The position numbers were made by a program, and so were the translations under genes. Below are positions 2,454-41,368 of a stretch of DNA of 51,478 bases, piece after piece. The notes below the pieces were generated by a model. It ran no database searches and was not told where the DNA came from. It saw only the letters and a program-made list of their open reading frames with translations. Source of the stretch: Deltaproteobacteria bacterium (GTDB lineage: Bacteria; Desulfobacterota; Desulfarculia; Adiutricales; Adiutricaceae); NCBI GenBank assembly GCA_031257955.1, contig JAIRNQ010000352.1, forward strand, positions 1 through 51,478, written 5' to 3'. How positions within the stretch are numbered: the first letter of the stretch is position 1; each line of letters opens with the position of its first letter.

Positions 2454-4090
2454 TTGGCCTCCTGGGCGGGCGCCTGGGATTGGGGCTCCGGAGAAGTCGG
2501 CGGAACTGTCGCCCGATCGGGCTCGGCCGGATCGGGTGGCAGGTCGCGCTCGTAAAAGAGACCCTGGGGCCGGCCGGCGGGCGAGGTGACGTAGATGACG
2601 TTAACGTCTTCCCGCTTGGCCTTAAACTGGGCCAAGGTGTCGTCCACGCTGGGTCCGATGAGTCCCAGTAGCCCGGTCGGGGCTAGGCCCAGGTAGATAA
2701 CCAGGGCGGCCGGGACGACCAGGTAGGCCCATTCCTTTTTCTTCAGGTCCTTCCAGTCATGGCCTTTGGGCGAGGGCGGCTCGCCCCAGGCCATCTTCAG
2801 GGTGACCTTGAGAATGTAGGCGGCGGCCAAGAGGGCCCCGGGGATGACCAAGAGGCCCAAGGTCACGCTTTCCTTGAAGGCGGCCAGGATGACCATGAAC
2901 TCGCCCACGAAGCCGTTGGTGCCCGGAAAGCCAAAGGAAGCCAAGCCAAAGAGGCCCCAGAAGAACATGAAGTGGGGGAGGTATTTGCCCAGGCCCAGGT
3001 TTTTGGCGATCTCCCGGCTGTGGCTGCGCTCGTAGACGGCCCCGATCATCATGAAGAGGGCCCCGGTGATTATGCCGTGGTTAAGCATCTGGAAGATGGC
3101 CCCGTTAACCCCGTCCGGGCTAAAGAGGAAAATTCCCAATGTGACAAAACCCATATGGGCCACGGAAGAGTAGGCGATTAGTTTTTTTATGTCGTTCTGT
3201 CCCAGGGCCACGGCCCCGCCGTAGAGGATGGAAGCCACCGATATGGCGATCATCATGGGGGCGAAATGTACCGAGGCCAAGGGGCACAGCGGGAGCGAGA
3301 AGCGCAGGAAGCCGTAGGTGCCCATCTTTAGGAGGACCGCCGCCAGGATGACCGATCCGGCCGAAGGGGCCTGGACGTGGGCGGCCGGGAGCCAGGTGTG
3401 AAAGGGGAACATGGGGACCTTGATGGCAAAGGCGATAAAGAAGGCCAGGAAGATCCAGTATTGAAAGTTATAGGAGAAGCCCTTTTGCATGAGCTCGGGG
3501 ATATAGAAGGTTCCTCCGGTAATCCGGAGGGCCACGATGGCCACGAGGAGGAGGGTACTTCCGGCCAAAGTGTAAAGGAAAAACTTAATGGAGGCGTAGC
3601 GTTTCTGGTCCCCGCCCCAGATGGCGATCATCAGATACATGGGAATCAACAGGGCTTCCCAGAAGACGTAGAACAAAACCAGATCCAAGGCCGAGAAGAC
3701 CCCCACGCAGGCCGTGGTCATGATCAGGAGGCAAACGTGGAATTCCTTTACCCGCCGCCCGATGTAGGTCCAGGAACACAGAACGCAAAAGGGCAGCGTT
3801 AAGATCGACAGCCAAATCATCAAAATGCTTATGCCGTCCACGCCCATGGCGTAGGTCAGGCCCCAGTCCTCGGACCAGGGGACGGTCTCCAGAAACTGGA
3901 AGCCGGACTGGGCCTTAAAACAGGCCAGGGGTATGGCCAAGACCAGTTCCAGCAGGGAAGCGACCAATGTCACCTGCCTGACCCGGATCTCGCTTTTGAT
4001 GGGGGCCAAAGCCAGGGCCGCCAACAGCGGGAAGAAGGTCAGGACGGTAAGTACCGGGTAGTAGCTAGTTTGATCCATTAGGGTATCCAT
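2450..4090 (-). CDS. nuoM: NADH-quinone oxidoreductase subunit M (antiporter-like), with a Pro/Glu-rich C-terminal tail
   Basis: 546-aa ORF. Motifs LVLFYVFWEALLIPMYLMIAIWGG and FPFHTWLPAAHVQAPSAGSVILAAVLLKMG are typical of NuoM. The last ~60 aa are low complexity. Confidence 0.85.
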   Translation of the reverse strand: MDTLMDQTSYYPVLTVLTFFPLLAALALAPIKSEIRVRQVTLVASLLELVLAIPLACFKAQSGFQFLETVPWSEDWGLTYAMGVDGISILMIWLSILTLPFCVLCSWTYIGRRVKEFHVCLLIMTTACVGVFSALDLVLFYVFWEALLIPMYLMIAIWGGDQKRYASIKFFLYTLAGSTLLLVAIVALRITGGTFYIPELMQKGFSYNFQYWIFLAFFIAFAIKVPMFPFHTWLPAAHVQAPSAGSVILAAVLLKMGTYGFLRFSLPLCPLASVHFAPMMIAISVASILYGGAVALGQNDIKKLIAYSSVAHMGFVTLGIFLFSPDGVNGAIFQMLNHGIITGALFMMIGAVYERSHSREIAKNLGLGKYLPHFMFFWGLFGLASFGFPGTNGFVGEFMVILAAFKESVTLGLLVIPGALLAAAYILKVTLKMAWGEPPSPKGHDWKDLKKKEWAYLVVPAALVIYLGLAPTGLLGLIGPSVDDTLAQFKAKREDVNVIYVTSPAGRPQGLFYERDLPPDPAEPDRATVPPTSPEPQSQAPAQEAK

Positions 4091-4234
4091 CGGTAGGGTA
4101 TCAATCGGGCCACCAAAATTGGCCTCCCTGGAGGCGGTTTTTGGTGGCCACTAAAACGGGTCGGTTGGCCCGGTCGGTCTTTTGGCCGGCCATAAGCCTA
4201 CGGCCCTGGGCCGTAGGCCCAAGGCTGGTAAGGT

Positions 4235-6022
4235 TTAGAGGCCGTACCAGAAAAAGGCGAATATAAGTAAGCCCAAGACGACCATGAGGCCAAGGTAGTG
4301 CTGGAGGCGGCCGTTTTGGGCCAGGGCCCCGATGGTCCCCAGGCCCTTGACCCCCAGGGCCGAGCCGTCGACCACGCCGTCGATGGCCTTGCGGTCAAAC
4401 CAGGAGGTGAGCCAGCCCAAAGCCTTGAGGACCCGTAGGCCGATTTTGTCCCAGACCACGGTCCAGACGTCGTCGATGGCGGCGATGGGGCGACAGACTA
4501 CGAAGAGGACGGCCCGCCCGATCAGGCGGTAGAACCAGTCGAAGTCCAGGTTCAGGGCCTTGTGGGGCTCGATGACCTTTCTCATGACGTAGAAGGCCAA
4601 GCCCGAGAAACCCAAGAGCATGGAAGCTTGGATGACGTTCCAGGCCGTCCAGGGGACGAATTCATGTACCGCTTCCTGGTAAGGGAGGTAGCGGTAAAGG
4701 ATTTGCGGGAAGAGGCCCTGGGCAAGGCAGAGGATGGCCAGGAAAGCCATGCCCACGTACATGTTGGCCGGTATGGGCTTAAGCTCTCGCTTGGGATCCG
4801 GGGCCTTGCCGCCCCAAAAGGCGAAATAGGGGAGCTTAAGCCCCACCGAGATGAACGTGCCCACGGCGGCCAACTCCAAGCCCAAGGCCACGAAGGTCCG
4901 GTGGGCCTCGGCCGCCCCGGCGATGGTCATGGTTTTGGAAACGAAGCCGTTAAAGAGGGGCATGCCGGATATGGAGAGGGCGGCCACCATGTAAAAGACC
5001 ATAACCCAGGGGAGGCGGGAGGCCAGGCCCCCCAGCTCGTCCAGTTTTTGGGTACCGGCGGCGTAAAGGACGGCCCCGGCCCCCATGAACAAAAGCCCCT
5101 TGTAGAGTATGTGGGCGTAGGCGTGGGCGCTGGCCCCGTTGAGGGTCACGTAGGTGCCCACCCCAATCCCGGCCACCATGTAGCCAACCTGGCTGACGAT
5201 ATGGTAGGAGAGGATGCGGCGGGCGTTGTTTTCCATGGAGGCGTAGACCACCCCGTAGATGGCCATGATCGTCCCGGCGATGGCCAGAATCTCCCAGCCC
5301 GGAAAGGCCCGAGCCAAAACGTAGACGGCCGTTTTGGTGGTGTAGGCGCACATGAAGACCGAGCCGGTGACCGTCCCCCGGGGGTAGGCATCGGGAAGCC
5401 AAGCGTGAAGAGGAACCACGGCGGCGTTCACGCAAAACCCTGACAGGATAAGCCAATCGGCATAGGTGGCCCCGGCCGGATCGATGGGGCCAAAGTCGAA
5501 GGAACCGGTGATTTGGTATCTCAGAAGGAGCCCGGCCAAGAGAAGGAGCCCGCCGGCCACGTGGTAGAGAAAATACCTAAAGGCGGCCAAGACCGACTCC
5601 CTAGTCCGGTTGAGCATGACCAGAAAGGTTGAGCCTATGCTCATCAGTTCCCAAAAAACGAAGAGGGTCAGATAATCCCCGGCCAAGAGGCAGCCGAAGC
5701 CCCCGGTCACGTATAGGAGGGCGGCCATGTGTTGGGCTTTGTCGTTTACGTGCAGGGAGTATATTATGCCGGCCAGGCTCATGACGGCGAAGACTTGGCA
5801 GAAGATCCTCGAGAGCGGGTCCACGTGGCCCAGCTTTAGGCTAAGCCCCAACCAGCCAATGGTCAGGTGATCGCCAAAGGCGTTGCCGAAGGCCCCGTAA
5901 ATGGCGGCGATGGGGGGCAGCAACAACAGCCACTTCCACCGGCGGTTGCCCGGGAGAAAGGGCAGGGCCACGGCCATCATCAGGAAGGCCAGGGCCGGAT
6001 GGTAAAAACTAGAGGTCGCCAT
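4235..6022 (-). CDS. nuoL: NuoL-type antiporter-like subunit carrying the C-terminal lateral-helix module
   Basis: 595-aa ORF with an MrpD/NuoL-family core (FVFWELMSIGS, HAWLPDAYP). The C-terminus FDRKAIDGVVDGSALGVKGLG...NGRLQHYLGLMVVLGLL resembles the NuoL/Nqo12 amphipathic helix HL plus last TM. Confidence 0.7.
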   Translation of the reverse strand: MATSSFYHPALAFLMMAVALPFLPGNRRWKWLLLLPPIAAIYGAFGNAFGDHLTIGWLGLSLKLGHVDPLSRIFCQVFAVMSLAGIIYSLHVNDKAQHMAALLYVTGGFGCLLAGDYLTLFVFWELMSIGSTFLVMLNRTRESVLAAFRYFLYHVAGGLLLLAGLLLRYQITGSFDFGPIDPAGATYADWLILSGFCVNAAVVPLHAWLPDAYPRGTVTGSVFMCAYTTKTAVYVLARAFPGWEILAIAGTIMAIYGVVYASMENNARRILSYHIVSQVGYMVAGIGVGTYVTLNGASAHAYAHILYKGLLFMGAGAVLYAAGTQKLDELGGLASRLPWVMVFYMVAALSISGMPLFNGFVSKTMTIAGAAEAHRTFVALGLELAAVGTFISVGLKLPYFAFWGGKAPDPKRELKPIPANMYVGMAFLAILCLAQGLFPQILYRYLPYQEAVHEFVPWTAWNVIQASMLLGFSGLAFYVMRKVIEPHKALNLDFDWFYRLIGRAVLFVVCRPIAAIDDVWTVVWDKIGLRVLKALGWLTSWFDRKAIDGVVDGSALGVKGLGTIGALAQNGRLQHYLGLMVVLGLLIFAFFWYGL

Positions 6023-6311
6023 AGTGGTCCTCGGGCCTTTTTATGAGGGGTTGGATGATTTTTTTGACGACGAAGATCAGGACCAGCCCCACTCCCAGGC
6101 CAAAAATGGGCCAGAAGAAAGGGTAGGCGTCAAAGCCGAAGTGGGGATGGTGGTTGGGAATGACCACACCCAGGACGGCAATGACGGCCAGTATGGCCAG
6201 AAAAGCGTTCCGCCAGGCTTTGGCCCGGCCGGGGGCCAGTTGGTCGGCCAGGAATCGGCCCAGAAAGCCTTGTGGTTCATCGTTGGGCATGTCGCGCACC
6301 CCGTTTGGCAA
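6009..6311 (-). CDS. small two-helix membrane protein of unknown function inside the nuo operon
   Basis: 100-aa ORF with two hydrophobic segments (AFLAILAVIAVLGVVI, FWPIFGLGVGLVLIFVV). Its 3' end overlaps the nuoL start by 14 nt, which suggests translational coupling. Confidence 0.5.
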   Translation of the reverse strand: MPNGVRDMPNDEPQGFLGRFLADQLAPGRAKAWRNAFLAILAVIAVLGVVIPNHHPHFGFDAYPFFWPIFGLGVGLVLIFVVKKIIQPLIKRPEDHYGDL

Positions 6312-6332
6312 AAACTAAATGGCAGGCCGGTT

Positions 6333-6377
6333 CGTTGTCCCGGCCAGAGGGCTTGGCCTGGCCGTTGTCCCGGCCAG
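6333..6377. repeat. direct repeat in a nuo intercistronic spacer
   Basis: CGTTGTCCCGGCCAG occurs at 6333..6347 and 6363..6377 (period 30). Confidence 0.8.
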
Positions 6378-6445
6378 TTAGCCCGAAGGCGCCGAAGGTA
6401 ACGGGAGAGGCGGACCCTAGCCCGCCGCGCCCGCAACCGGGGGCC

Positions 6446-7939
6446 TTAGTTGAAGTTCCCGAAGGACTTTATGAAGTTTAGGAATAGCTCGGGAAAGAGG
6501 CCCAGGGCCACGGAGACGACGCTGGTGAAGACCAGCGGCACCACCATGGTCAGTGGGGCTTCCTTGCATTCCTCGATATGGGCGCTGGGTTCCGGGGCCA
6601 GGAAAAAGGCCCGGTAGAATATGGGCACGAAGTAGCCGGCGTTTAGGAGAGTCGAACACAAAAGGGCCACCAGCAGGACCAATTGGCTTTGGTCCAGGGC
6701 CCCGTTTACCAAATACCACTTGGAGACGAAGCCGCAGACCGGGGGCATGCCTATCATCGACAGACTGGCCAAGCCAAAGGCCCCGAAGGTCCAGGGCATC
6801 TTCCGGCCCAAGCCGTTCATCATTTTTATGGACTTTAGGTGGCTGGCCACGTAGATGGCCCCGGCCCCGAAAAACAAGGTGATCTTGGAAAAGGCGTGGT
6901 GGCCTATGTGCATCAGGCCCCCCTGGACGGCCATGGGGGCGGCCAAAGCCACGCCGATGACCACGTAAGAGAGCTGGCTCACGGTCGAATAGGCCAGCCG
7001 GGCCTTTATGTCGTCCTTGGTCAGGGCGATAAGCGAGGCGGCCACAATGGTAAAGCCGGCCACGTAAGCCGTCGGGAGGGAGAGACCCAAGGAAACCATG
7101 GCGTCGGTCCCGAAGCCCGAAAGAATTATCCGGCTGACCGAGAAGACTCCGGCCTTAACCACGGCCACGGCGTGGAGAAGGGCCGACACCGGGGTGGGGG
7201 CGACCATGGCCGAGGGCAGCCAGTTGTGAAAGGGCATCAGGGCCGCCTTGGCCAAGCCGGCTATGAACAAAACGTAGGCCAGCCGGACCAAATTGGGATG
7301 GGCGGCTATGACCTCGGGCGGGAAGATGCCGTGGCGGATGTCGCCCAACGGGAAGTCCAGCGTTCCGGTCAAGGCATAAGTTAAAATCATGGCCGGGAGT
7401 AAAAACAACTTTGAGGTTCCCATCAGGTAGACCAAGTATTTTTTGGCCCCGTAGAAACCTTCCTCGTCCTGGTGGTGGGCCACCAGCGGGTAAGTGAAGA
7501 TGGAGATTATTTCGTAAAACAGGTACAGCGTAAAGACGTTGGCGGCCAGGGCCACGCCCACGGCCCCGAAGATGGCGATGGCGAAGCAGAAGTAGTAACG
7601 GGTCTGGGCGTGTTCCTTAAGGCTCCTCATGTAGCCTATGTTGTAGCTGGTGGCGAATACCCACAGAAAGGGGGCGACGAAAGCGAAGATGATCCCCAAG
7701 CCGTCCACGGCGAAGGTGACCGAAAGCCCCGGCAGGATCCTGAAGAGCTCGTAGCGGTGGATGTGCCCGTGTAAAACGGCCGGGGCAAAGCTTATGACAA
7801 GCAAGGCCGTTATGGCCCCGGCAAAGATCGAGACACCTTCCCTCAAGTTTTGGTTCTTGCCGGCCAACAGAATTCCGAAGGGGGCCAGAAGGGTAACCAA
7901 AAGCGGCCAAAGCACGTTTACGCTATCGATGGGGGTCAT
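6446..7939 (-). CDS. additional MrpD/NuoM-type antiporter-like subunit (fourth antiporter module of the operon)
   Basis: 497-aa polytopic ORF between nuoK and the small protein/nuoL. Motifs FTLYLFYEIISIFTYPLV and MPFHNWLPSAMVAPTPVSALLHAVAVVKAG are typical of proton-conducting membrane transporter family proteins. Confidence 0.75.
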   Translation of the reverse strand: MTPIDSVNVLWPLLVTLLAPFGILLAGKNQNLREGVSIFAGAITALLVISFAPAVLHGHIHRYELFRILPGLSVTFAVDGLGIIFAFVAPFLWVFATSYNIGYMRSLKEHAQTRYYFCFAIAIFGAVGVALAANVFTLYLFYEIISIFTYPLVAHHQDEEGFYGAKKYLVYLMGTSKLFLLPAMILTYALTGTLDFPLGDIRHGIFPPEVIAAHPNLVRLAYVLFIAGLAKAALMPFHNWLPSAMVAPTPVSALLHAVAVVKAGVFSVSRIILSGFGTDAMVSLGLSLPTAYVAGFTIVAASLIALTKDDIKARLAYSTVSQLSYVVIGVALAAPMAVQGGLMHIGHHAFSKITLFFGAGAIYVASHLKSIKMMNGLGRKMPWTFGAFGLASLSMIGMPPVCGFVSKWYLVNGALDQSQLVLLVALLCSTLLNAGYFVPIFYRAFFLAPEPSAHIEECKEAPLTMVVPLVFTSVVSVALGLFPELFLNFIKSFGNFN

Positions 7940-8055: not shown

Positions 8056-8385
8056 TTAATGGCCGCCGGCCGAATCGTTGGCCCGGATGGACGAGACCTC
8101 GTCCAGGGTGACTTTACCGAAGCGGCGCTGGACTACCAGTATCATGGCCAGTACCAAAGTGGCCTCGGCGGCGGCCAGGCCCATGACGAAAAGGGCGGCC
8201 AGCTGGCCGTGGACCTCGGAGGCCGGGGTACACTTGGCGGCGGCCACGATGGCCAGCCCGGCCCCGTTAAGCATAAGCTCGACGCTGATTAGCATGCCCA
8301 CCAGGGTCCGCCTGGTGATTAACCCGGCCAGGCCAATGGAAAGTAAGAGGAGCGAGGCCAACAGAAACAGGGTCAGGGTGGTCAT
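8056..8385 (-). CDS. nuoK: NADH-quinone oxidoreductase subunit K
   Basis: 109-aa three-helix ORF with a conserved-looking SVELMLNGAGL motif. Its start overlaps the nuoJ stop. Confidence 0.85.
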   Translation of the reverse strand: MTTLTLFLLASLLLLSIGLAGLITRRTLVGMLISVELMLNGAGLAIVAAAKCTPASEVHGQLAALFVMGLAAAEATLVLAMILVVQRRFGKVTLDEVSSIRANDSAGGH

Positions 8386-9047
8386 TTTTGGGCCCCCCCT
8401 TTGGTGGAAAGGCTAGGCGCCGATCCGGTCTTTGGCTGGGGCGGATCCTCCGGGGTCGGCCGGCGGCGCCAGGCCAAAAACACGGCCCCGGCCATGGCCA
8501 CCAGAAGGATTATGGAGATAAGCTCAAAAGAAAAGACGTCCTGGGTGATGAGCCCCTCGCCCAAAAGCCTGGTCTCGGTTTGCCCGTAGCTTTGGAGGGT
8601 CAGCTTGGGCACGTTTTTGACGATCAGCGGCCCCAGAACGGCCAGGGGCAGCAAGAAGGCCAAAAGCCCGTAGAGGGCCGAACCAATTCCCGGCAGCTTA
8701 GATTCCTCGCCCTCGTTGGTGTTGCGGGTCAGCATGATGGCAAAGAAGATCAAAACGCAGACCGCTCCCACGTAAATCAAGACCTGCATGAAGGCCAGAA
8801 AGGGGCTGGCCAGAAGGAGGTACAGCCCGGCCACGCCCAGAAAAGTCAAAACCAGCCCGATCATGGCCCGGATCAGGTTTCTGGAGCCTATGGCCATAAA
8901 GCCCCCGGCCAGTATGATCAAAACGTACACCCCGTAGGCGATGAGCGCCGCCACCTCCTGGCCCGGCAGCCACTCGGCTATCAGTTCCTCCAGGGCGTTA
9001 AAGGGCGACCAGATGAGGGCCAAGATCTTTTCTATTGCCTGGTCCAT
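8382..9047 (-). CDS. nuoJ: NADH-quinone oxidoreductase subunit J
   Basis: 221-aa membrane ORF with FMQVLIYVGAVCVLIFFAIML (NuoJ-type TM3). It has an N-terminal ~30-aa extension and a Pro-rich C-terminal tail. Confidence 0.8.
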   Translation of the reverse strand: MDQAIEKILALIWSPFNALEELIAEWLPGQEVAALIAYGVYVLIILAGGFMAIGSRNLIRAMIGLVLTFLGVAGLYLLLASPFLAFMQVLIYVGAVCVLIFFAIMLTRNTNEGEESKLPGIGSALYGLLAFLLPLAVLGPLIVKNVPKLTLQSYGQTETRLLGEGLITQDVFSFELISIILLVAMAGAVFLAWRRRPTPEDPPQPKTGSAPSLSTKGGAQK

Positions 9048-9155
9048 GCCTAAACCTCAAATCCTTTGGATACGGACATTATTCGGCGAAAGGTAACGAA
9101 AAAATATATTTTTCTTGGCGGGAGCCTTGGCTCTCATGACGCTGTCCCATGGGAG

Positions 9156-9788
9156 TCAATCAAGGTTTGACAGGAGATTAAAGCCCCCGAAGATTTTTTC
9201 CTCGACGTTATCATTCGTTAAATCGACTAAAGGAAAAGTTAAGCCTCTTATTCTGGTTAAACCCCACCAGTTATCGAAAGAAACTTTTCCCGTAAACTTA
9301 CCTTCATACCTATTGGTACCCTCAATGTTATGGCTCCACTTTATATTTCCCCCAGCCGAGTCCCAAAACGGACGAAAGAAGAACCACCAGTCCGGCTTAG
9401 AGATATTATCAGTCCAGTCATCGCGCAAAATAGCCTCTTCGATGTCAAACCTAGCTATGTTAACGACAGGTTGGTCACTATATCCGGTTATGGCTTCCGT
9501 TGAGTAAAGAGTAAGGATCAAGACATATAACCCACCACTTTTGTATATTTTATTTACAAACGGGTTTGATTTTTTTTGAAAAATAAGACAAAACTCTCGG
9601 TACAGCCAATATTGCGGGTCATAACTTTTTATAGGGGTCCTCAAAAAACCTTTTCCAGCTCCAATTGGAAGCCGTATAAAATCAGCCTTATCCGATTCAA
9701 TCTCAAAAAAATCGAATAATTTTTTGGCGCTATCGTAAGTTTTGGTGATTACCTCAAAAGCCGTGGTGATATTTTTACCCGAATTCAT
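9156..9788 (-). CDS. hypothetical protein, partner (ORF-B) of the nuclease-like gene; no recognisable domain
   Basis: Low-GC ORF. The likely start is the ATG at 9788 (MNSGKNITT...), which lies inside the last codons of the upstream gene (TATTATGAATTCGGGTAA), a 14-nt overlap. Trp/Phe-rich, 210 aa. The longest-ORF start at 9878 is unlikely. Confidence 0.6.
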   Translation of the reverse strand: MNSGKNITTAFEVITKTYDSAKKLFDFFEIESDKADFIRLPIGAGKGFLRTPIKSYDPQYWLYREFCLIFQKKSNPFVNKIYKSGGLYVLILTLYSTEAITGYSDQPVVNIARFDIEEAILRDDWTDNISKPDWWFFFRPFWDSAGGNIKWSHNIEGTNRYEGKFTGKVSFDNWWGLTRIRGLTFPLVDLTNDNVEEKIFGGFNLLSNLD

Positions 9789-10539
9789 AATACACCCCTT
9801 TCTGAATAAAACTATTGTCAGTAAAGGAGAAATTGACGGAAAACGTCCAATACGAAGGCTCGACAATATCACCCACAAGAAAACTCTTGAATCGCTCGAA
9901 GCCTTTGCGTTGAAGCAATAGTTTTAAGTCAGTGAAAATCACTCGCTTAAATGGGTCGTCACAATTGATATTAGCGATAGATTCAAGAACCTTCTCCCAA
10001 GTTAATAATCCGAACGATACTTTTTTGAGAGACGGAAGTCTGCGTTCACAAACGTCTTTATATATTGAGTAGGCGCTTTTCGCGGGAGCGAGCAATATAA
10101 GAATTGGTCTCAAGTCCTCACTTTTCTCCAGTAGAGTTCTAGCCTCTCGATCCAATTGATTGGCGTTGGTCTTGTTTTCCTCTTCCAGAGCCTTCGCGTA
10201 ATCGGTATCGTCATCGCTGGACAAGCCGCTATCGAGTTTAACCTCAATAAGTATCATTATATCAGCGATTTTGATTATCACGTCAGGTTCGGTAGATTGA
10301 ATACGCGGCCAAAATTCAATGTTTTGTGACCATTCATAAGCGTCAATGGAACTAATGTCAGTATGGATAGTATTATCGTTCTCTCCAGGCATTTCTGTCT
10401 CAAGGAGAATTTTCTTCATACCCTCGTTAAACGGGACATACCGTAGAACCCCGAAAAAATCCCCTGTTAACTGATCTTCAAGCCTGTCATGTAACTTAGC
10501 AGCGTTCTTACTTATTTTTCCATGAAGTTCCGCGATCAT
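9775..10539 (-). CDS. PD-(D/E)xK nuclease-like protein (ORF-A) in a foreign cassette inside the nuo operon
   Basis: 254-aa low-GC ORF. It has an N-terminal acidic helix (LEDQLTGDFFGVLRY), then EPD-x12-IEVK on a hydrophobic strand (IMILIEVK), followed by an NQLDRE helix. This is the classic D...ExK arrangement. Confidence 0.6.
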   Translation of the reverse strand: MIAELHGKISKNAAKLHDRLEDQLTGDFFGVLRYVPFNEGMKKILLETEMPGENDNTIHTDISSIDAYEWSQNIEFWPRIQSTEPDVIIKIADIMILIEVKLDSGLSSDDDTDYAKALEEENKTNANQLDREARTLLEKSEDLRPILILLAPAKSAYSIYKDVCERRLPSLKKVSFGLLTWEKVLESIANINCDDPFKRVIFTDLKLLLQRKGFERFKSFLVGDIVEPSYWTFSVNFSFTDNSFIQKGVYYEFG

Positions 10540-10668
10540 CTTTCTTTCCCAACACTAAGCAATCAACGAAGCTAAGTTAAGTTTGCCCGACCGGTAAACA
10601 CCTCGATCGCTTTTGGCCCTTGCCCAAAAGTCCCCGGGCTGGCGGCCCCGCTTGGGCCCGACGGCCCT

Positions 10669-11217
10669 TTAGGCCGGGGCCTCGCCGGTGACCGGCGCGG
10701 CAAGGACTTGGTTGCCTTCGCCTTCGGCCTCGGCCTCGGCCTTGGGTTGGGGCGGATTGGGGGCCCTGGCCAACAGATCGGCCAGAAGGTCCAGGTGGAG
10801 CGCTTCCCGGCTGGGGGCGACCAGGTAAACCTTATGGGAGAACCTGATGGCCCCGGTTGGGCAGGATTCCACGCAGGCGGCGCACAAGCAGCAGAGGGTG
10901 AAATCGTAGAGATAGACCTTGGGGGCCTTGCCCTTATCGCCTTTGGTCACCGTCAGGCAGTGTCCCGGACAAGCCCGCACGCACATCTGACAAGAGATAC
11001 ACTTGCTTTGGCCGGTATCGTCGGCCGGGACCAGCTCCAGTGGGCCCCGGTAGGACTTGAGGCATTCGGGGTCGTCCACCTGTCTGGGGTAATGGGTGGT
11101 CTTTTGCGGGCTGACGAAAAATCGCCCGGTGATGGAAAGGCCAACCAAAAGACTGTAGAGGCCCTTTAAGTTGTCGATAATCGCCTTAATCATTGGATAC
11201 CGTCCGTTAGCAACCAT
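10669..11217 (-). CDS. nuoI: NADH-quinone oxidoreductase subunit I (2x[4Fe-4S])
   Basis: Two ferredoxin Cys motifs (CISCQMCVRACP and CCLCAACVESCP). Alternative start at 11193 (MIKAII...). Ala/Glu/Pro-rich C-terminal tail. Confidence 0.85.
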   Translation of the reverse strand: MVANGRYPMIKAIIDNLKGLYSLLVGLSITGRFFVSPQKTTHYPRQVDDPECLKSYRGPLELVPADDTGQSKCISCQMCVRACPGHCLTVTKGDKGKAPKVYLYDFTLCCLCAACVESCPTGAIRFSHKVYLVAPSREALHLDLLADLLARAPNPPQPKAEAEAEGEGNQVLAAPVTGEAPA

Positions 11218-11322: not shown

Positions 11323-12306
11323 TCATTCGATAAACTTTAAGACTATGGCCGTGACCCAGAGGTTTAGGATCGACAGGGGCAGCAGCCACTTCCAGTTAAT
11401 GTTCAAGAGTTGGTCGAAGCGCACCCTGGGGAAGGTCCAGCGAAGCCAAACGATGAGGCACATTACGGCGTAAGCCTTAATGAAGGTCCACCAGAAACCG
11501 TCAAGGATAGGCCCTTTGTAGCCGCCCAGGAAGAAAGTGGCGCAAACAAAGGAGACCAGAAGCATGTTGGCGTACTCGGAGAGGAAAAACAGGGCAAAGC
11601 CCATGCCCGAATACTCGGTGTGGAAGCCGGCCGTCAGCTCGCTTTCGGCCTCGGGCAGATCGAAGGGGGCCCGGTTGGTCTCGCCCACGAGACTGACGAA
11701 ATATATGAAGCAGGCCAGGGGCTGGAAAACTATGTTCCACTGCCAGGGCCAGGTGCCTTGGCGTTCGACGATCTCGGAAAGGTTAAGCGATCCGGCCATA
11801 AACACCACGGCCAGGAGGGCCATGATCATGGGGATTTCGTAGGCCACCGACTGGGCCACGGCCCTGGCCGCCCCCAGGAGACCGTATTTGTTGTTGGAAG
11901 CCCATCCGGCCAGTATGTTGGAGATGACCCCGAGGCCGGCGAAGGCCAGTATTAACAGAATGCCGTCGTCAACCTTCAAGGCGACCAGATATTTACCGAA
12001 GGGGATGGGGAGAAAGAGGAGCAGCACCGGGAGAAAGGCCATGACCGGGGCCAGGAAGTACAAAAGCCAGTCGACGTTTCCGGGTATGAAAAGCTGCTTG
12101 CCCAAGAGCTTCATGGAGTCGCAGATGGCCTGTATGGTCCCTCTGGGGCCAACCTCGTAGGGACCCGGCCGGCGTTGGATGAAACCGGCGGCCTTTCGCT
12201 CGATGTAGACCATTATCACCGCGTTGCCGACCATCAGGGCGATGATCAGAAGGCAGGCGATGACGATTTGGACGAAATTGGCAATCGTAAGTTCCATTGT
12301 CCCCAC
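11323..12306 (-). CDS. nuoH: NADH-quinone oxidoreductase subunit H
   Basis: 327-aa membrane ORF. Motifs VYIERKAAGFIQRRPGP, GETNRAPFDLPEAESELTAGFHTEYSGM and FFLSEYANM are hallmark NuoH/ND1 sequences. Confidence 0.9.
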   Translation of the reverse strand: MGTMELTIANFVQIVIACLLIIALMVGNAVIMVYIERKAAGFIQRRPGPYEVGPRGTIQAICDSMKLLGKQLFIPGNVDWLLYFLAPVMAFLPVLLLFLPIPFGKYLVALKVDDGILLILAFAGLGVISNILAGWASNNKYGLLGAARAVAQSVAYEIPMIMALLAVVFMAGSLNLSEIVERQGTWPWQWNIVFQPLACFIYFVSLVGETNRAPFDLPEAESELTAGFHTEYSGMGFALFFLSEYANMLLVSFVCATFFLGGYKGPILDGFWWTFIKAYAVMCLIVWLRWTFPRVRFDQLLNINWKWLLPLSILNLWVTAIVLKFIE

Positions 12307-12442: not shown

Positions 12443-13636
12443 TTAGCGGTCCACCTCGGGGATGACCAGATCCAGGCTACCCAGGATGGCTATGGCGTCG
12501 GCCAAGAGGGTCCCCTTGGCCGCCTCGGCGAAGAGCGAGAGGTTGGAAAAACCCGGGGCTCTCAGCTTTATCCGGTAAGGCCTCGTCCCGCCGTCGCTGA
12601 CCAGGTGGCAACCGACTTGGCCCCTGGCCCCTTCCACGGCAAAATAAGTCTCCCCGGCCGGAAGCTTGTAGTTGGCCTTGGGGGCTTTGTCGATACGGAT
12701 AGCTCCGGCCGGCAGTTCCTTTATGGCCTGTTCCACAATCGTGAGGCTCTCCTCGACCTCGGCCAACCGGACCAGGTAGCGGCCGAAAGAATCGTTGGTG
12801 GGCCCGGAGGGGATATCGAAGTCGAATTTCTTGTAGATGCCGTAGGGGATGTCCCGGCGGGTGTCGCTGGCCACCCCGGCCGCCCTCAGTATGGGCCCGG
12901 TGGCCCCATAGCGCTGGCAAATGTCCACGCCCATGGGACCGACGCCCTCCAGGCGCCTCCGTAAAATGATATTGTCGGTGACCAGGGCCTTGTACATCTT
13001 CAGGCGCTCCCGCAGGTAGGGAACAAACTCCTTGGTCAGCCGCAAGAACCTCTCGTCGACGTCGGTGGATACCCCGCCGAAGCGGAAGTAGCTCAGGGTC
13101 AGCCGGGAACCGGTGACGATCTGGAGGATATCGTTTATCTTTTCCCTTTCCTCGAAGGCGTACAGGATGGGGGTGACCCCGCCCAGATCCATGACGAAGG
13201 CCCCCCACCACATAAGGTGTGAGGCGATCCGGTTCAGCTCGCAGCTAATGACCCTAAGGTATTCGGCCCTCTCGGGGACCTCGATGCCGCCCAGACGCTC
13301 GACCGCCCCCACGTAAGCCCAGTTCCAGGCGATGGGGTGAAGGTAATCGACCCGGCCCATGTTGGGGATGAACTGCCAGGGGGTCTTCACCTCGCCCATT
13401 TTTTCGTGCATGCGGTGCAGGTAGCCCAACACCGGCTCGGCCCTAATGACGTATTCGCCGTCCAATTCCACGACTATCCTCAGAACCCCGTGGGTGGAGG
13501 GGTGCTGGGGACCCAAATTCAGGATGACCGTGCCGGGTTTGGCCTTTCGGCTAAAATTTTCGGTATAAAAGTCGCCGGTGAAAGTACCGGGATCCTCCCG
13601 AACGCCGAAGGGGTTTATGAAGTTGAGGCCGCTCAT
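12443..13636 (-). CDS. nuoD: NADH-quinone oxidoreductase subunit D
   Basis: 397-aa ORF. NLGPQHPSTHGVLR near the N-terminus and a C-terminal ...LGSLDLVIPEVDR are typical NuoD / [NiFe]-large-subunit-like features. Confidence 0.9.
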   Translation of the reverse strand: MSGLNFINPFGVREDPGTFTGDFYTENFSRKAKPGTVILNLGPQHPSTHGVLRIVVELDGEYVIRAEPVLGYLHRMHEKMGEVKTPWQFIPNMGRVDYLHPIAWNWAYVGAVERLGGIEVPERAEYLRVISCELNRIASHLMWWGAFVMDLGGVTPILYAFEEREKINDILQIVTGSRLTLSYFRFGGVSTDVDERFLRLTKEFVPYLRERLKMYKALVTDNIILRRRLEGVGPMGVDICQRYGATGPILRAAGVASDTRRDIPYGIYKKFDFDIPSGPTNDSFGRYLVRLAEVEESLTIVEQAIKELPAGAIRIDKAPKANYKLPAGETYFAVEGARGQVGCHLVSDGGTRPYRIKLRAPGFSNLSLFAEAAKGTLLADAIAILGSLDLVIPEVDR

Positions 13637-13743: not shown

Positions 13744-14304
13744 CTAAGCTCCGGCGCCGTCGCCGGCGCCCGGCTTGTCCGGGGCGGGCGGGTTAACCAG
13801 GGCCTCCCAGGACGGGTCCAGGACGTCGGCCTGGCCGAAAAGCCCCAGCGCCGAGAGGGCGGCCAAGTCCTTGGGGTCTTTCCTAAGCGGCGGCGGACCG
13901 TCGAAATCGGCCGGCAGTATGAGGGGCACGGGGTTGGGGTTGCCGAAAAAGATCAGCCCATAAAAATCGGCGCTTTCCCGCTCGTGCCACTCCGCCCCCT
14001 CAAAGATCCCATATAAACTGGGCACTTCCGGCATTTCTTCCGTGGCCAGCACCCGCAGGGCCAGCCGGCCGGGTTCCCTAAAGGAGTCGAAGTGGTAGGT
14101 GACCAAAAACCCTTCCTTGGCCTCCAATACCGACAGATCCAGAAGAGCGTAGCCGTCGTCCTTAAGGCCCCGGGCCAGTTTTGTCAATATTCCGGCCGGG
14201 ATGGTTGCCGACAGGACCAAGCCGTCCCGCTTAAAATCGTGCCGCGAGACGACGAGGGCCCCGGCTTCCCTGAAGCGGCTGTCGAGATTTTCGATGGCGG
14301 TCAT
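13744..14304 (-). CDS. nuoC: NADH-quinone oxidoreductase subunit C
   Basis: NuoC-like ...FEGAEWHERESADFYGLIF... motif. The start is taken at ATG 14304, preceded by GGGGAG; the longest ORF starts at 14337. Confidence 0.8.
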   Translation of the reverse strand: MTAIENLDSRFREAGALVVSRHDFKRDGLVLSATIPAGILTKLARGLKDDGYALLDLSVLEAKEGFLVTYHFDSFREPGRLALRVLATEEMPEVPSLYGIFEGAEWHERESADFYGLIFFGNPNPVPLILPADFDGPPPLRKDPKDLAALSALGLFGQADVLDPSWEALVNPPAPDKPGAGDGAGA

Positions 14305-14418
14305 ATGGCTCCCCGAAAAACAATATCGCGGTCCCATCCGGGACCCGGGCCTTGGCCTTTAGGGCGTTGGTTATGGTCTTTAGTCTTTGGGCTCGGCCCG
14401 CGGCCCGGGTCCCAGACC

Positions 14419-14458: not shown

Positions 14459-15064
14459 TTAAGCTTTGGCCGACTCGGCCTTGTCGGGCGCGGCTTTGGG
14501 TTTCTTGGGCTCGGCCAAGGGCGAGGGGATTTCTTCGGGCCGGGGCCAAAAACGTATCCCCAGGATCTTCTCCTGGATGGCGAAGACGCCTTCCAGTATG
14601 GCCTCGGGCCTGGGCGGGCAGCCGGGCACGTAGACGTCCACGGGCACTAGATTGTCCACGCCCTCGACGATGCCGTACTGGTTTTCGAATTTAAAGGGCC
14701 CGCCGGATATGGCGCAGTTGCCGCAAGCCATGACGTACTTGGGGGCCGGCATCTGTTCGTAGAGCCTGACCAAGGCCGGGGCCATTTTTTTGGAGACCGT
14801 CCCGGTGACCATCATCAGATCGGCCTGACGGGCCGAGGGGCGGAAGACCTCGGCCCCAAACCTGGCGATGTCGAAGCGGGCCATGCTGACCGACATCATT
14901 TCAATGGCGCAACAGGCCAACCCGAAGGTGATCGGCCAGATGGACATGGCCCGGTTGACGTCAAAGAAGAAATTTAAGGGCTTAAGGTTAATTATCGGCG
15001 GAAGGATCTCCGCTTTGGTAATGGGCTTGCGTTCGGTGCCCTCTTCCCGCTCCGTTGCGGCCAT
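14459..15064 (-). CDS. nuoB: NADH-quinone oxidoreductase subunit B (N2 cluster)
   Basis: [11 protein letters not shown], ...[13 protein letters not shown]... and [12 protein letters not shown] motifs. Lys/Pro/Ala-rich C-terminal tail. Confidence 0.9.
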
Positions 15065-15203: not shown

Positions 15204-15584
15204 TCAGCTTTGGATTCGGCGGGGCCAGGCGAAGACTCCCTTGGCCTTGAAATAAACTATGGCCAAAAGAACGAAGAAAAGAAAGAAAGTCAGCTCGGCC
15301 AGGGGCAGCCAGCCGGGGATGAAACGGTAACTCACCCCGACCGGGTACAGATAGAGAATATCAACGTCAAAGGCCAAAAATATAAGGGCATATATATGAT
15401 AATTAAAGGCAAAATGATCCCAAGCCTGGCCGTAAGGCTTAACGCCGCATTCATATGGCATCTTAAAGTCCCCACCGCGGGCGCGGGGGGCTATGAGAAG
15501 GGCAATGGCGAGGGGGGAAGCGGCGAAGATGGCGGCGGCCACCAAAAAAACGATGATGGCCAAATGGAGGGAGTTAAATATCAT
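15204..15584 (-). CDS. nuoA: NADH-quinone oxidoreductase subunit A
   Basis: 126-aa three-helix ORF, first gene of the operon, with YECG and [13 protein letters not shown] motifs typical of NuoA/ND3. Confidence 0.85.
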
Positions 15585-16175
15585 GGTTGCCCCTAAGTTC
15601 CCGGCTTCAGCCGAAAGGGAAATTGGGTGGGAATGGGCCTAAGATTAGGCGGGGGCCCATGTTGGCCGGGCGGAAGAGACCTCCGCCCGCCTTGGTCGTT
15701 GGGGCCAAGGCTAAGGCCAAATCAAAGCGATAGTCGGATACGCCCTTCCGAAAACCGAATCAAGGCCTTCTGGCCGAAATCCTTCGTTTCCGGGTCGCGT
15801 CCCGAACCGTCGCACCCTTAACAGAGCCATTCCCGATGGGTTTTCTAAACCCTATCCTGCGATTGGTCAATAGCTGCAAATTATTTTGTTGAAATATTAA
15901 ACATTTATGCTTTTTGGAAGCCAAAAAGACTCAAAAGGAACCCATAAAGCGATCAGTGGATTTTTTTAGAAAAAACGAATAGTTAAACGGTCAGCAGAGC
16001 AATACCCGTTCCCGGGTCGGCACCAGCCGTTCCGGCCCCGTCCTTGGGGCCGGTTCGCTCCCCCGTTTCCACCCGGTTTCCCGGGTGGTCCTCCGGGCGC
16101 ACCCCTCCCCTCCTGACGTAGGCCTTCGATTCGTGCCGCCAGCTCTCCAGCGATAAGTTTAATTGGTTGGTCTAG

Positions 16176-16204
16176 ACTATAGTATAGCCAAAATATTTTG
16201 TCAA
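16176..16204 (-). promoter_or_regulatory. candidate sigma70-type promoter reading toward nuoA
   Basis: Minus strand reads TTGACA (16204..16199), a 17-nt spacer, then TATAGT (16181..16176). It lies ~600 nt upstream of the nuoA start, ahead of a GC-rich hairpin-rich segment. Confidence 0.35.
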
Positions 16205-16776
16205 GATATTTTTTATTTCTCAAGATATCTAGATGAGTTATTCATCGCTCTAGATAATTTTGTCAAAATTTATTGACTAAACTTAGAACATTGGCCATAT
16301 TTAGACAGTCTTTAGGGTCACAGTTTCCGCGGCTAACCTCCCTTACCAAGGGCGAAAAATGCTCAAGCCAAATTAATTTTCCCAATAATTCAGGCCCGTT
16401 AAACGCCTATCCTTCAAATGGCCCATGTCTCCCCCTTAAAACCCCCAAGGTCCCCCTAGGGGCTCCCCGGCCACTCTTCCCACGATATCTTGTGATATTT
16501 ATACTAAAATTGCCTTACTGCCCCCAGCTCTCCTCACCTCTCGACAGGCCGGGTTAAGGCCCCAAGGTGGCCTTGGCCCCCGGGTCGCTTTTGGGCCATA
16601 CCAGCGCGCGCCTATCGATTCCTACCTGTTCATACCTATTACAACCTATTTTATGTTATATCGGGTCGTTCAGGCCTTTTTATCGATGGCCGGTCCAATA
16701 AAGGCCCTTCGCGTCCTTTAGGCGCTCTTGGCCGTCCGTCTCGGGTCTAGCCCATGTTTAAGACATAGCTTTACGC

Positions 16777-16819
16777 AAAAAAAAATGGCCGATTAGCCAA
16801 CTGACTCGGCTAATCGGCC
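16777..16819 (-). terminator. intrinsic terminator downstream of the transposase gene
   Basis: Perfect 12-bp stem GGCCGATTAGCC / GGCTAATCGGCC with a 9-nt loop, followed on the minus strand by a run of 9 T. Confidence 0.6.
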
Positions 16820-16860: not shown

Positions 16861-18072
16861 CTACATGGAGACGGACTTTGGGTTTTGCTCAAAGGCCGCT
16901 GACAAGCGGAAGGGCCCGAAGGATTCGGGATTGATGGTGAAGTTCCAGTCCCCATGGAACTCCGACGGGAGAAGTTGCAGGCCCCGCTCATCCTCCGCTG
17001 AGCGCGCTTGGGGCTGGAAGTGGCTATGGTCTAGCCTGAGACCCAGGGCCATGGTTCTGGCGTCTTCGGGGGGGTTAAGCAATTTGGCCGAAATCTCGTA
17101 ATCCCTTTCGGATTCGCCTTTCCAATGCGACGAGATGAAGGAAAAGAGCCTCTGGCAAGGCCTGTTCCATTTTGAGGTGCCGGGAGGGAAGCGGCAGAAC
17201 TCCACCGGAAGCCCCAGGGTGTTGGAGAGCTTTTGGAGCTCCGCCTTCCAGGAGAACTTCTGGGAGCAGCCGCAGCCGTCGGCGGTGACGAAAAGACAGT
17301 TGGCTTCGGGGTACAGTTCTTGCCCTTCTACCAGCCACCAACCCAGTAGGGAGTCAGCGGTGAAGCTGGGCGCTTCCATGGCCGTTTCGACGTTCACGCT
17401 CTCCCTGGCCAGCAAGGGATCGTAGACGCCGGTCGGGTATTCCCCGGCCAGGACGCGGTCGATGCCGCCGTTCCTGTTTAGGCCGTAGTCCCCGGAAACG
17501 AAGAGCGGCTCGCGGCGCCGGGTCTCGACGCTTATGACCGGTTGGTTTTCCTCCAACCGCTCGCTGATCCGGTTTTCCAGGTACTGGAATTGGGCTTGGC
17601 GGTCGGGCTGCAGGCGGTTCTCGTCGTTTCGCCTGGTCCCTTGCAGGTTGTAGCCGTTCTGTCTGAGGATCTGGGCCACCTTCTCGTGGCTGATCCGGTG
17701 ATGGGAAGCGGTCAGTTCCTGGGCCAGTTTTCTGGTGCTTTTGACGGTCCAGAGGATGTTGGGGGCGTCGGTTGGCGCCGACTCCCGCAACAGTTGATCC
17801 AGGCAAGACCAGATGTCCGGGTCAACCCGCTCTACCCGGGGCCGACCCGCCCCCGAGCGGCGGGTTTTACCCGGCGCCAAAGGAGCCTCGTCAAGCTCCT
17901 TAATCCCTTTGGTTATCGTTACCCTGGAAAGCCCGCAGGCCCGGCTAACCATCGATATGCCCCGGCGGCCGATTCTCCTGGCCTCACTGGCGGCCACCAG
18001 TCGCCTCTCCCGTTCACCCAGGTGAGGCCAAACGTTATTAAACATCCGTGACAACGCTATTTCGGTATCCAT
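16861..18072 (-). CDS. ISAzo13-family (Rhodopirellula-type DDE) transposase homologue, diverged
   Basis: 403-aa ORF with an N-terminal HTH region (LGERERRLVAASEARRIGRRGISMVSRACGLSRVTITKGIKEL). FPPGTSKWN...RLFSFISSHWKG and FHGDWNFTINP match my recollection of the ISAzo13 transposase C-terminus. Confidence 0.7.
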   Translation of the reverse strand: MDTEIALSRMFNNVWPHLGERERRLVAASEARRIGRRGISMVSRACGLSRVTITKGIKELDEAPLAPGKTRRSGAGRPRVERVDPDIWSCLDQLLRESAPTDAPNILWTVKSTRKLAQELTASHHRISHEKVAQILRQNGYNLQGTRRNDENRLQPDRQAQFQYLENRISERLEENQPVISVETRRREPLFVSGDYGLNRNGGIDRVLAGEYPTGVYDPLLARESVNVETAMEAPSFTADSLLGWWLVEGQELYPEANCLFVTADGCGCSQKFSWKAELQKLSNTLGLPVEFCRFPPGTSKWNRPCQRLFSFISSHWKGESERDYEISAKLLNPPEDARTMALGLRLDHSHFQPQARSAEDERGLQLLPSEFHGDWNFTINPESFGPFRLSAAFEQNPKSVSM

Positions 18073-40149: not shown

Positions 40150-41163
40150 TTACTTGCCTTCCAGGGTTTTGATTTCTTTTTTCAGCTCGGTCAAAAGCTT
40201 CTCGCCTTCGGGTCCAGCCATTTCTATAAACAGCTTCTCGGACGGGGTGGCCAGGGCCACAAACTTGTCCCGCTCCTCGTCGGTCAGATCGTAGAAGATC
40301 ATGTTTGGGCGCTCTTTGAGCATCTTGGCCTTATCGGCTTCATTGATTTTGTCGCCCTCTTCGATGATGTAGGCAATGGCTTCCGTGGCCGAAAGGCGCA
40401 CGGCTTCTTGCTCGGCCGGGGTTAGGGAGTTGAACCATTCGAGGTTGGCCACGAAGGCCGAGGCGAAGGGGATCTCGAAGGCGTTGGTCATGTAATCTTG
40501 CTGCTCGTAGAAGCTCATTTCTTCATGAGCGAAGTAAGGCTGGATGTTGGCGTCGATTTGTTTCAGCTGAAGAGCGCTGTAGATCTCGGCGTAAGGGACA
40601 TGCTGGGGATTGGCCCCGTAGCTTTTGTAAACTTCGGCCAATAAAGGGTCAGCCATGACCCGAATGCGTAAGTTTTTAAAGTCTTCCGGAGTCTTAAGGG
40701 GTTTGTTGGAAGACCAGATCTGCCAGCCTTCGGGGAAGACCGACAGGAGCTTCATGCCTTTCTCGTCGATGGCCTTACCCAGAATCTCGTATAGGGCCGG
40801 GCTCGATTCCATGATTTTGGAGTTCACGGCGTTATCCCTGGACCAAACGAAGGGCACGGCGAAAATCCTGATCATCGGAATGAAGACGCCAATGTTTGAG
40901 CAGGTGATGTCAAAATTAATGACCCCGTTCATGACCTGCTCGGCTTGATCTTGGGCGTCTCCCAGAACCCCAACCGGATATATCTCAACGTTCCAGTCAG
41001 GGAGCCGCTTTTCAACCCTTTCCTTGAAGTTTTTGGCGTAAAGGTCTTCCATTCCGCCGGTGATTTCTTCATGGGCCAATTTGATGTCAACCGCCAAGGC
41101 CGGTCCGGCGAACAGGGCCAAACCCACTAGACAGAACATCAAACAATAAACGATCTTTCGCAT
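40150..41163 (-). CDS. dctP: TRAP transporter substrate-binding protein (DctP family)
   Basis: 337 aa. Signal peptide MRKIVYCLMFCLVGLALFAGPALA. DctP-like ...IYPVGVLGDAQDQAEQVMNGVINF... Confidence 0.85.
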   Translation of the reverse strand: MRKIVYCLMFCLVGLALFAGPALAVDIKLAHEEITGGMEDLYAKNFKERVEKRLPDWNVEIYPVGVLGDAQDQAEQVMNGVINFDITCSNIGVFIPMIRIFAVPFVWSRDNAVNSKIMESSPALYEILGKAIDEKGMKLLSVFPEGWQIWSSNKPLKTPEDFKNLRIRVMADPLLAEVYKSYGANPQHVPYAEIYSALQLKQIDANIQPYFAHEEMSFYEQQDYMTNAFEIPFASAFVANLEWFNSLTPAEQEAVRLSATEAIAYIIEEGDKINEADKAKMLKERPNMIFYDLTDEERDKFVALATPSEKLFIEMAGPEGEKLLTELKKEIKTLEGK

Positions 41164-41353: not shown

Positions 41354-41368
41354 TTCACTATATGTGAC
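41354..41368. promoter_or_regulatory. operator-like motif copy 3 (reverse complement GTCACATATAGTGAA) upstream of dctP
   Basis: TTCACTATATGTGAC on the + strand, ~190 nt upstream of the dctP start, oriented with the minus-strand gene. Confidence 0.45.

Follow-up and report, generated by a model that had tools for sequence, protein, structure and literature searches.

Why does a respiratory operon carry two genes of foreign appearance in its middle? The window analysed here (the whole stretch of 51,478 nucleotides, contig JAIRNQ010000352.1 of the Deltaproteobacteria bacterium assembly GCA_031257955.1) carries on its minus strand an 11-subunit-type nuo operon, and this host operon is deltaproteobacterial (Desulfovibrionales-like). 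From the nuoI stop to the nuoJ ATG there are 1,621 nt (9048-10668), which hold two intact open reading frames (ORFs), ORF-A and ORF-B, both on the nuo strand, and encode no other gene. The answer that we consider probable, though well short of certain, is that the pair is a horizontally acquired defence module made of a nuclease and a partner, in which A would be the effector and B a sensor, regulator or specificity subunit, both expressed by read-through from the nuo operon. The insert and its two flanking genes are made up as follows.

10669-11217, minus strand: nuoI, intact, upstream flank of the insert; matches Fer4 and Fer4_7; GC content at third codon positions (GC3) 0.75
10540-10668, minus strand: left spacer, nuoI stop to ORF-A ATG, 129 nt, GC-rich and then AT-rich
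9775-10539, minus strand: ORF-A, 254 aa, predicted PD-(D/E)xK nuclease (NERD/DUF4143-like)
9775-9788, minus strand: ORF-A stop and ORF-B start, overlapping by 14 nt, ATGAATTCGGGTAA
9156-9788, minus strand: ORF-B, 210 aa from its ATG, obligate partner with no family or fold match
9048-9155, minus strand: right spacer, ORF-B stop to nuoJ ATG, 108 nt, holding the nuoJ ribosome-binding site (GAGG)
8382-9047, minus strand: nuoJ, intact, downstream flank; Oxidored_q3 match, E 4.8e-32; GC3 0.79

An initial annotation, made from the letters of the sequence, had given coordinates for both ORFs, nuoI and nuoJ, and all of them were re-derived unchanged. It had also called the DNA between nuoI and nuoJ visibly AT-rich, and the contrast is clear: the GC content of the insert is 0.37-0.42 over 9200-10600 versus 0.56-0.66 in the flanks, in a contig of about 60% GC. 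In addition, the GC3 of ORF-A (0.435) and ORF-B (0.412) lies about 0.4 below that of the host genes (0.75-0.83 for nuoH, nuoI, nuoJ and nuoK). The same annotation had seen no methyltransferase, integrase, flanking repeat or strong terminator in the insert. Checks of border repeats, terminators and ORFs agreed with this: no integrase, transposase or methyltransferase is encoded in the insert, no direct or inverted repeats of note flank its borders, and no terminator-like site is predicted in it, both spacers included. Meanwhile, attC-like GTTRRRY core sites in the insert are at chance level with no enrichment, and no Rfam family matches it. An integron cassette, an insertion sequence, a transposon and a prophage were rejected for the lack of transposase or integrase, border repeats and attC enrichment. 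A restriction-modification (R-M) system was also rejected, since no methyltransferase is encoded between nuoI and nuoJ.

The position and strand of the two genes within the nuo operon would fit lineage-specific Nuo accessory subunits or assembly factors. Related nuo loci bear directly on this explanation. A NuoH-based scan with one genome per species gave 80 loci, each of which was scored by tblastn for NuoH, NuoI, ORF-A, ORF-B, NuoJ and NuoK, and about 70 of the 80 had both nuoI and nuoJ matches. Neither ORF-A nor ORF-B was found in any of the related nuo loci scored, and in the ~70 loci the NuoJ match began 33-529 nt after the NuoI match ended. The closest relatives (L009 and L010) are two uncultured 'Deltaproteobacteria' metagenome-assembled genomes. 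The pair is absent from both of them. L009 is 92% identical in NuoH, 86% in NuoI and 81% in NuoJ, and its nuoI-nuoJ spacer is 99 nt long with the nuoI stop and the nuoJ ATG included, while the NuoH of L010 is 79% identical and its nuoI and nuoJ overlap. Since the pair is missing from ~70 related loci, including the relative with 92% identity in NuoH, it is, by these comparisons, a lineage-specific horizontal acquisition and not a Nuo subunit. Horizontal acquisition had been argued from composition in the initial annotation, which also proposed this empty-site comparison; the junctions of the relatives are empty, and the lower GC3 points the same way. Furthermore, the codon composition of the pair is foreign, ORF-A has the features of a nuclease (see below), and homologues of the pair lie in defence islands, plasmids and R-M operons and never adjoin nuo genes in the Firmicutes and Bacteroidota loci. 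The probability that we leave to a Nuo accessory role is therefore practically nil.

The borders of the insert suggest how the module arrived. The right spacer aligns to the 99-nt spacer of L009 (score 41 versus 19 +/- 5 for shuffled sequences; 1 of 300 shuffles scored as high), BLAST homology with L009 starts again at 9061, and the right spacer is thus taken to be largely the ancestral nuoI-nuoJ spacer. The left spacer (10540-10668) gives no alignment with the L009 spacer (score 7.5, shuffle mean 12.7). Because the right spacer aligns and the left one does not, the foreign DNA entered near the stop of nuoI and displaced the old spacer downstream, together with the nuoJ ribosome-binding site. 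The C-terminus of nuoI (...APA*) is native and has the same ending as in L009. Taken together, we propose that a module of ~1.5 kb with two genes was recently acquired and inserted into the short nuoI-nuoJ spacer in the orientation of the operon, leaving both neighbours undamaged.

Some details of the two spacers can be added here. The GC content of the left spacer is 0.6-0.8 from 10668 to ~10585, and it is AT-rich beyond. The segment of 85 nt and ~80% GC that directly follows the nuoI stop (10585-10668) is missing from the L009 spacer, is unlike the AT-rich cassette in composition, and contains short hairpins (GGGCC-GUCG-GGCCC) that fold no better than shuffled sequence; it may be host-derived or co-transferred. 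The stretch 9105-9155, just 3' of the ORF-B stop, holds TCCCATGGGA, which is a perfect 10-bp palindrome, and also the small hairpin GAGCC-AA-GGCTC. It matches the L009 spacer poorly and could represent the 3' end of the cassette that came in. As to structured RNA, both spacers fold no better than shuffled sequences (z = 0.3-0.4; 0.32 for the left spacer).

Could the insert be an assembly artefact, in which a fragment of a low-GC organism was joined into the nuo operon in a chimeric metagenome contig? The window is apparently a single metagenome contig (51478 bases), and when the exact NuoI and NuoJ proteins were looked up for sister contigs, whether carrying the insert or empty, the junctions were not found a second time. 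However, such an artefact needs two independent false joins exactly in a spacer of ~100 nt and on the operon strand. In addition, the borders share no repeat, and both ORFs and both host genes are intact. We consider a chimeric contig highly improbable.

How would the two genes be expressed at this site? A Shine-Dalgarno-like GGGAAAG precedes the ORF-A ATG in the left spacer, and no promoter-like site upstream of ORF-A was predicted there. Because no promoter or terminator of its own is recognisable in the insert, the pair is probably transcribed together with nuo, by read-through that starts at the nuo promoter. Transcription of nuoJ and the later genes would then have to cross the insert.

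What does ORF-A encode? In the initial annotation, a PD-(D/E)xK nuclease was suspected from three motifs, and all of them are found in the sequence: LEDQLTGDFF at residues 20-29, E84-P85-D86 followed after 12 residues by I98-E99-V100-K101, and N127-Q128-L-D-R-E. A large protein collection contained 287 homologues of ORF-A, the best of them 42-47% identical. Most belong to Firmicutes (Oscillospiraceae, Paenibacillus, Clostridium perfringens) and some to Bacteroidota; nearly all are unnamed, a few being labelled NERD or 'nuclease-related'. In an alignment of 48 sequences, the invariant columns include E21, D22, T25, G26, D86, E99, K101 and Q128, and we propose E21/D22, D86, E99, K101 and Q128 as the catalytic residues. 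Judged from this alignment, the catalytic motif of ORF-A is complete, with the D...ExK core, the acidic helix upstream and the Q helix downstream. The family, whose proteins have ~250 aa, also has features of its own, namely strong conservation of the N-terminus (MIAE..K, EDxLTGxxFGxxRY) and YYEF as the end of the C-terminal tail.

When the relatives were compared with Pfam singly, 20 of 48 matched DUF4143 and 15 of 48 matched NERD at E <= 0.01, and a few also matched PDDEXK_4, PDDEXK_13, UPF0102 or REase-ARP. The best E values within the family were 2e-6 for NERD and 6e-5 for DUF4143. ORF-A shares with NERD (PF08378) and DUF4143 (PF13635) the D...ExK core and the downstream helix with a conserved Q (QxxxE/Y). 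Thus, the family would be a remote sister group of NERD/DUF4143 that, by the criteria of Pfam, stands outside both. Among the PDB sequences, neither a profile nor a sequence search gave a match for ORF-A.

The AlphaFold2 (AF2) model of ORF-A (pLDDT 82, pTM 0.76, with low confidence for the tail 212-254) shows helix 13-32, strands 74-76, 87-91 and 94-100, helix 121-140 and strand 144-151, which fits an alpha-beta-beta-beta-alpha-beta core. In the model, D86 stands directly before strand 87-91, and E99 and K101 are at strand 94-100. The Foldseek list for the model, weak as it is, consists almost entirely of PD-(D/E)xK nucleases: the R2 endonuclease domain, Nt.BspD6I and the small subunit, Can2, AF1548, arenavirus and bunyavirus cap-snatching endonucleases, McrC, HincII, BstEII and SfsA. 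The suspicion of the initial annotation is thus accepted on the invariant D86/E99/K101, the Pfam matches of the relatives, the topology of the modelled core and the Foldseek list: ORF-A belongs to the PD-(D/E)xK superfamily and is predicted to be a metal-dependent endonuclease.

The partner is of a different kind. Pfam, NCBIfam, PHROGs, PADLOC and the PDB sequences contain nothing that matches ORF-B, and a word-indexed homologue search with it returned ORF-B alone. The B family was reached through the genes neighbouring the ORF-A homologues and then by exhaustive phmmer search. The genes 3' of the ORF-A homologues are ~30% identical to ORF-B (pairwise E 1e-22 to 1e-23), and the phmmer search gave 74 representatives, A-B fusions among them. 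A profile search added further B relatives, all of them called 'hypothetical protein' and without a precomputed Pfam domain. The AF2 model of B (pLDDT 89.7, pTM 0.88) is a single alpha/beta domain with an N-terminal helix of 30 residues, an antiparallel sheet and a C-terminal helix. Foldseek found no significant fold neighbour of this model in the PDB and BFVD; the best nonsignificant matches (E >= 0.18) were IclR ligand-binding domains, Mog1 and type III secretion chaperones.

B has many conserved aromatic residues, and the pattern of its conserved positions (N6, I7, A10, T17, L49, R50, W61, Q71, Y116, P140, L187, N194 and L206) suggests no catalytic set. LPIGAGKGF had been offered as a possible glycine loop of ORF-B, but this hint did not survive the alignment: the stretch is variable, and only the following L49-R50 (FLR motif) is conserved. 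B as a degenerate nuclease subunit was tried and rejected, as the probability was 0.2% when the two families were aligned with hhalign.

Do the two proteins act together? ORF-A and ORF-B overlap by 14 nt at 9775-9788 (minus strand), TATTATGAATTCGGGTAA. HMMs of both families were built, and every fetched locus was scanned with them. B lies directly 3' of A in 20 of 20 independent testable loci; three further loci stop at the contig edge after A and stand outside this count. The 14-nt overlap is identical in 13 independent loci of several phyla, with a near-identical junction (TATTATGAATTCnGGTrA), and the other junctions have a 17-nt overlap (n = 3), a 20-nt overlap (n = 1) or a 13-nt gap (n = 1). 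Thus, the tight coupling that the initial annotation had pointed to has correct coordinates and recurs elsewhere, and its question of whether A and B occur together in defence islands of unrelated genomes is answered in the affirmative by the 20 loci. Furthermore, three loci have single fused A-B ORFs of ~440 aa (L093 456-1775, L099 7989-9311 and L100 7989-9320), and several A-B fusions, 395-480 aa long, were seen among database proteins. Because of the strict co-occurrence, the conserved translational coupling and these Rosetta-stone fusions, we infer that A and B form a physical 1:1 complex. We propose that in this complex A would be the nucleic-acid-cleaving effector and B the sensing, regulatory or specificity subunit.

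Two side observations on the copies may be given here. Two of the three fusions lie on IMG/VR 'viral' contigs, and the set L091-L100 also encodes several large serine recombinases. Meanwhile, in L006 (Paenibacillus borealis CP009285, 8767-9347), B is split into pieces of 84 aa and 108 aa and A is intact; this apparent frameshift may reflect a decaying copy or a sequencing error.

A small, translationally coupled unit of two genes that always occur together could also be a toxin-antitoxin (TA) or addiction module, with A as nuclease toxin and B as its neutraliser, whose loss would be lethal and which would have no primary anti-phage function. The pair is often found on plasmids and integrative and conjugative elements (ICEs) and beside recombinases or transposases, and in L101 there are NTP_transf_2 genes near it. 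However, A-B fusions are hard to square with a labile antitoxin that is degraded separately; B is large (190-210 aa) and without HTH, RHH, AbrB or any other Pfam domain; and the gene order is toxin first. In addition, the frameshifted B beside an intact A in L006 would leave a free toxin, which is intolerable unless A is inactive too. Many TA modules are defence systems, so this explanation overlaps with the defence module that we prefer. As a separate reading, we regard an addiction module as unlikely, though it deserves some weight.

The genomic contexts of the pair elsewhere suggest that it serves to defend the cell from phages or other invading DNA. The pair stands next to GmrSD and an AAA_15/21 ATPase in four loci (L003-5 and L007) and between a pPIWI-RE system and McrBC-like or NERD genes in L006. 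In two Bacteroidota loci (L008, 5269-14634, and L103, 5267-12942), it lies inside a type I R-M operon, with hsdS on one side and hsdR on the other, and a CBASS operon (SMODS, E2, NUDIX effector) adjoins the R-M operon that holds the pair. The hsdM of these two loci is part of the surrounding type I system. The ORF-A start of L103 overlaps the hsdS stop by 4 nt, and this region is on a conjugative element or ICE (TraG, MobC). The L102 copy lies in an island with DISARM-like DUF1156 and SNF2, RmuC, an integrase and DruA (Druantia). On Bacillus and Niallia plasmids the pair is next to HNH and GIY-YIG nucleases, and other copies are beside serine recombinases, transposases, WYL/WCX regulators and McrBC.

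The phage GenBank collection gave no ORF-A relative, and IMG/VR gave two only, both fused forms beside serine recombinases, for which reason both are probably integrated elements. The alignment of the B family is too variable for a pattern scan of viral contigs. A metagenome scan gave 10 loci only.

Could the two proteins cleave foreign DNA directly? A solitary heterodimeric restriction enzyme of type IV-like or modification-dependent kind would have B for target recognition (e.g., as a reader of modified bases) and A for cleavage, and it would work without an abortive step or a methyltransferase. In the loci examined, no methyltransferase is a fixed companion of the pair, the neighbours are often type IV or modification-dependent systems (GmrSD, McrBC), both R.BspD6I subunits stand beside McrC, HincII and BstEII in the Foldseek list of ORF-A, and B is rich in aromatic residues that are conserved. 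On the other hand, no similarity of B to known modified-base readers or to any DNA-binding fold could be detected, the profile comparison of B with A is not significant, and every structural match of A is weak. We rate this explanation as unlikely; it is really a sub-case of defence.

A further rival starts from the insertion itself. PD-(D/E)xK homing endonucleases exist, and the A-B nuclease could itself promote insertion into operon spacers like a free-standing homing endonuclease, making the pair a selfish homing-type cassette. The insertion is precise, with no integrase or repeats, and the same-strand position within operons is seen in three unrelated cases (nuoI-nuoJ in the window, hsdS-hsdR in L008 and in L103). 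However, in nearly all cases the genes on either side change from locus to locus, which leaves no shared target site; many copies adjoin recombinases or transposases able to move them; no near-identical copies are seen at different sites; and nothing ties the nuclease to its own insertion site. A homing cassette is thus very unlikely.

Is the pair already known as a defence system? The initial annotation could match it to no named system, and this still holds: there is a remote match of A to PDC-M15A and none for B. PDC-M15 is a two-gene cassette (FAM_00087>>FAM_00103) seen 241 times and one of 145 untested PADLOC phage defence candidates of Payne et al. (10.1101/2024.01.29.577857), which were nominated as genes embedded in BREX, DISARM or type I R-M operons. 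The supplement of that study identifies PDC-M15 by family codes alone, without sequences or annotation. Against PADLOC-DB 2.0, ORF-A matched the PDC-M15A model PDLC04459 over residues 5-191 (E 1.9e-9, 35.6 bits). PDC-M15A models were matched by 42 of 48 ORF-A relatives (E 1e-5 to 1e-13, 20-48 bits), which is the level of remote homology, and the best scores in the family (~1e-12 to 1e-13) are far below what is expected for seed members. ORF-B had no PADLOC match at E <= 1, PDC-M15B included; none of 55 members of the B family matched any PDC model, and neither did six partners from other loci.

PDC-M15 and the A-B pair are alike as two-gene A>>B cassettes. The PDC-M15A models have 226-260 positions, close to the length of ORF-A, and the pair shares embedding in type I R-M operons (L008, L103) with the PDC set. 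Unlike PDC-M15, the partner of A in the pair is different or has diverged beyond recognition. On these profile matches, the pair is best described as a sister of PDC-M15. No description of this pair was found in the literature on PDC-M15, NERD two-gene systems and DUF4143 in defence.

NERD proteins have long been known in defence islands, and the NERD-containing HEC-02 has been validated. HEC-02 combines NERD with an ABC ATPase, and ZwsA, also from a validated NERD-containing system, is a single multidomain RNA endonuclease; neither has a B-like partner. R.BspD6I is a two-subunit PD-(D/E)xK enzyme from adjacent genes, and both its subunits are among the ORF-A Foldseek matches, although these are weak (E 6e-3 and 2e-2; query-normalised TM-score 0.25-0.28). 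Unlike in R.BspD6I, the B of the pair is not recognisably of nuclease fold, and the insert has no cognate methyltransferase.

The site of the pair also has a parallel. At the EcoprrI locus, the anticodon nuclease PrrC is embedded in a type I R-M operon. The R-M-embedded PrrC, the candidates embedded in Hma or R-M operons and the pair are alike in being small same-strand nuclease units nested in a host operon. R-M-embedded nucleases rely on the transcription of the host operon, and the pair at hsdS-hsdR and nuoI-nuoJ can be likened to them in this respect. Unlike that of PrrC, the host operon here is respiratory and not immune. PrrC and RloC are ABC-ATPase anticodon nucleases and have no sequence relationship to the pair.

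Several points weigh against a nuclease-based defence module and hold our confidence down. The argument for defence is one of guilt by association, that is, of genomic association alone, and the contexts of L104 and of parts of L007 are not obviously defensive. No sensor, ATPase or DNA-binding domain is recognisable in B. The ORF-A of the window itself matches no Pfam nuclease model at E <= 1, and its Foldseek matches in the PDB are weak, with a best E of 3e-3 and TM-scores <= 0.28. PADLOC would call no system at the insert, as B matches nothing. In addition, the contig is a metagenome assembly, and the joins of the insert are known from the assembly alone.

A bolder version of the defence module can also be imagined, which we regard as a long shot. 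The pair would then be an unrecognised defence system, with B as a new fold through which infection is sensed or a NERD-like nuclease is directed to its target. As an 'operon hitch-hiker' without a promoter, the cassette would enter short spacers of transcribed operons (hsdS-hsdR, nuoI-nuoJ) on the same strand, independently of an integrase and possibly with the help of its own nuclease.

What would the pair mean if it protects against phage? It would add to the bacterial immune repertoire a compact system of ~1.4 kb that occurs in several phyla. The pair is not a named system and falls within the small nuclease-based candidate defence cassettes, of which many comparable untested ones already exist. 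Its striking features are the partner without known relatives and the habit of same-strand nesting inside operons. Since B has no detectable relatives in annotated families or solved structures, it would be a good place to seek a new principle of sensing or target selection, and the pair lends itself readily to testing, given its conserved 14-nt overlap and the fusions that occur in nature. The location suggests that such cassettes can settle in a core energy-metabolism operon and borrow its transcription. Searches based on defence islands and the present PADLOC would miss a system at such a site. It also raises the question of what the insert costs for the expression of the downstream nuo genes.

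The other genes of the nuo operon are as follows.

15204-15584, minus strand: nuoA
14459-15064, minus strand: nuoB
13744-14337, minus strand: nuoC
12443-13636, minus strand: nuoD
11323-12306, minus strand: nuoH
8056-8385, minus strand: nuoK
within 981-7939, 3' of nuoK: four Proton_antipo_M (NuoL/M/N-like) antiporter-like genes

The operon of the window is without nuoE, nuoF and nuoG. In the same stretch 3' of nuoK there is also an ORF of 100 aa (6009-6311, minus strand) with no Pfam match. Upstream of nuoA lies the gene of an ISAzo13-family DDE transposase (16861-18072, minus strand; PF07592, E 2e-57), and the region directly upstream of nuoA (15800-16800) is lower in GC (~0.46). The nuo promoter region may thus also have been remodelled by mobile DNA.

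No tRNA gene was found within the window. Far from the nuo operon, the region 41000-43200 is AT-rich (GC 0.29-0.45) and holds no ORF longer than 70 aa. Beside it are an 84-aa N-terminal fragment of a DUF1156 methylase (43293-43547, minus strand; E 6e-17), then the gene of a Schlafen AlbA_2 and HATPase_c_4 protein (43589-44752, minus strand) and, near the latter, that of a NOV_C protein (44740-45333, minus strand). The whole region 41000-45333 has the look of a defence or mobile-element island that has decayed.

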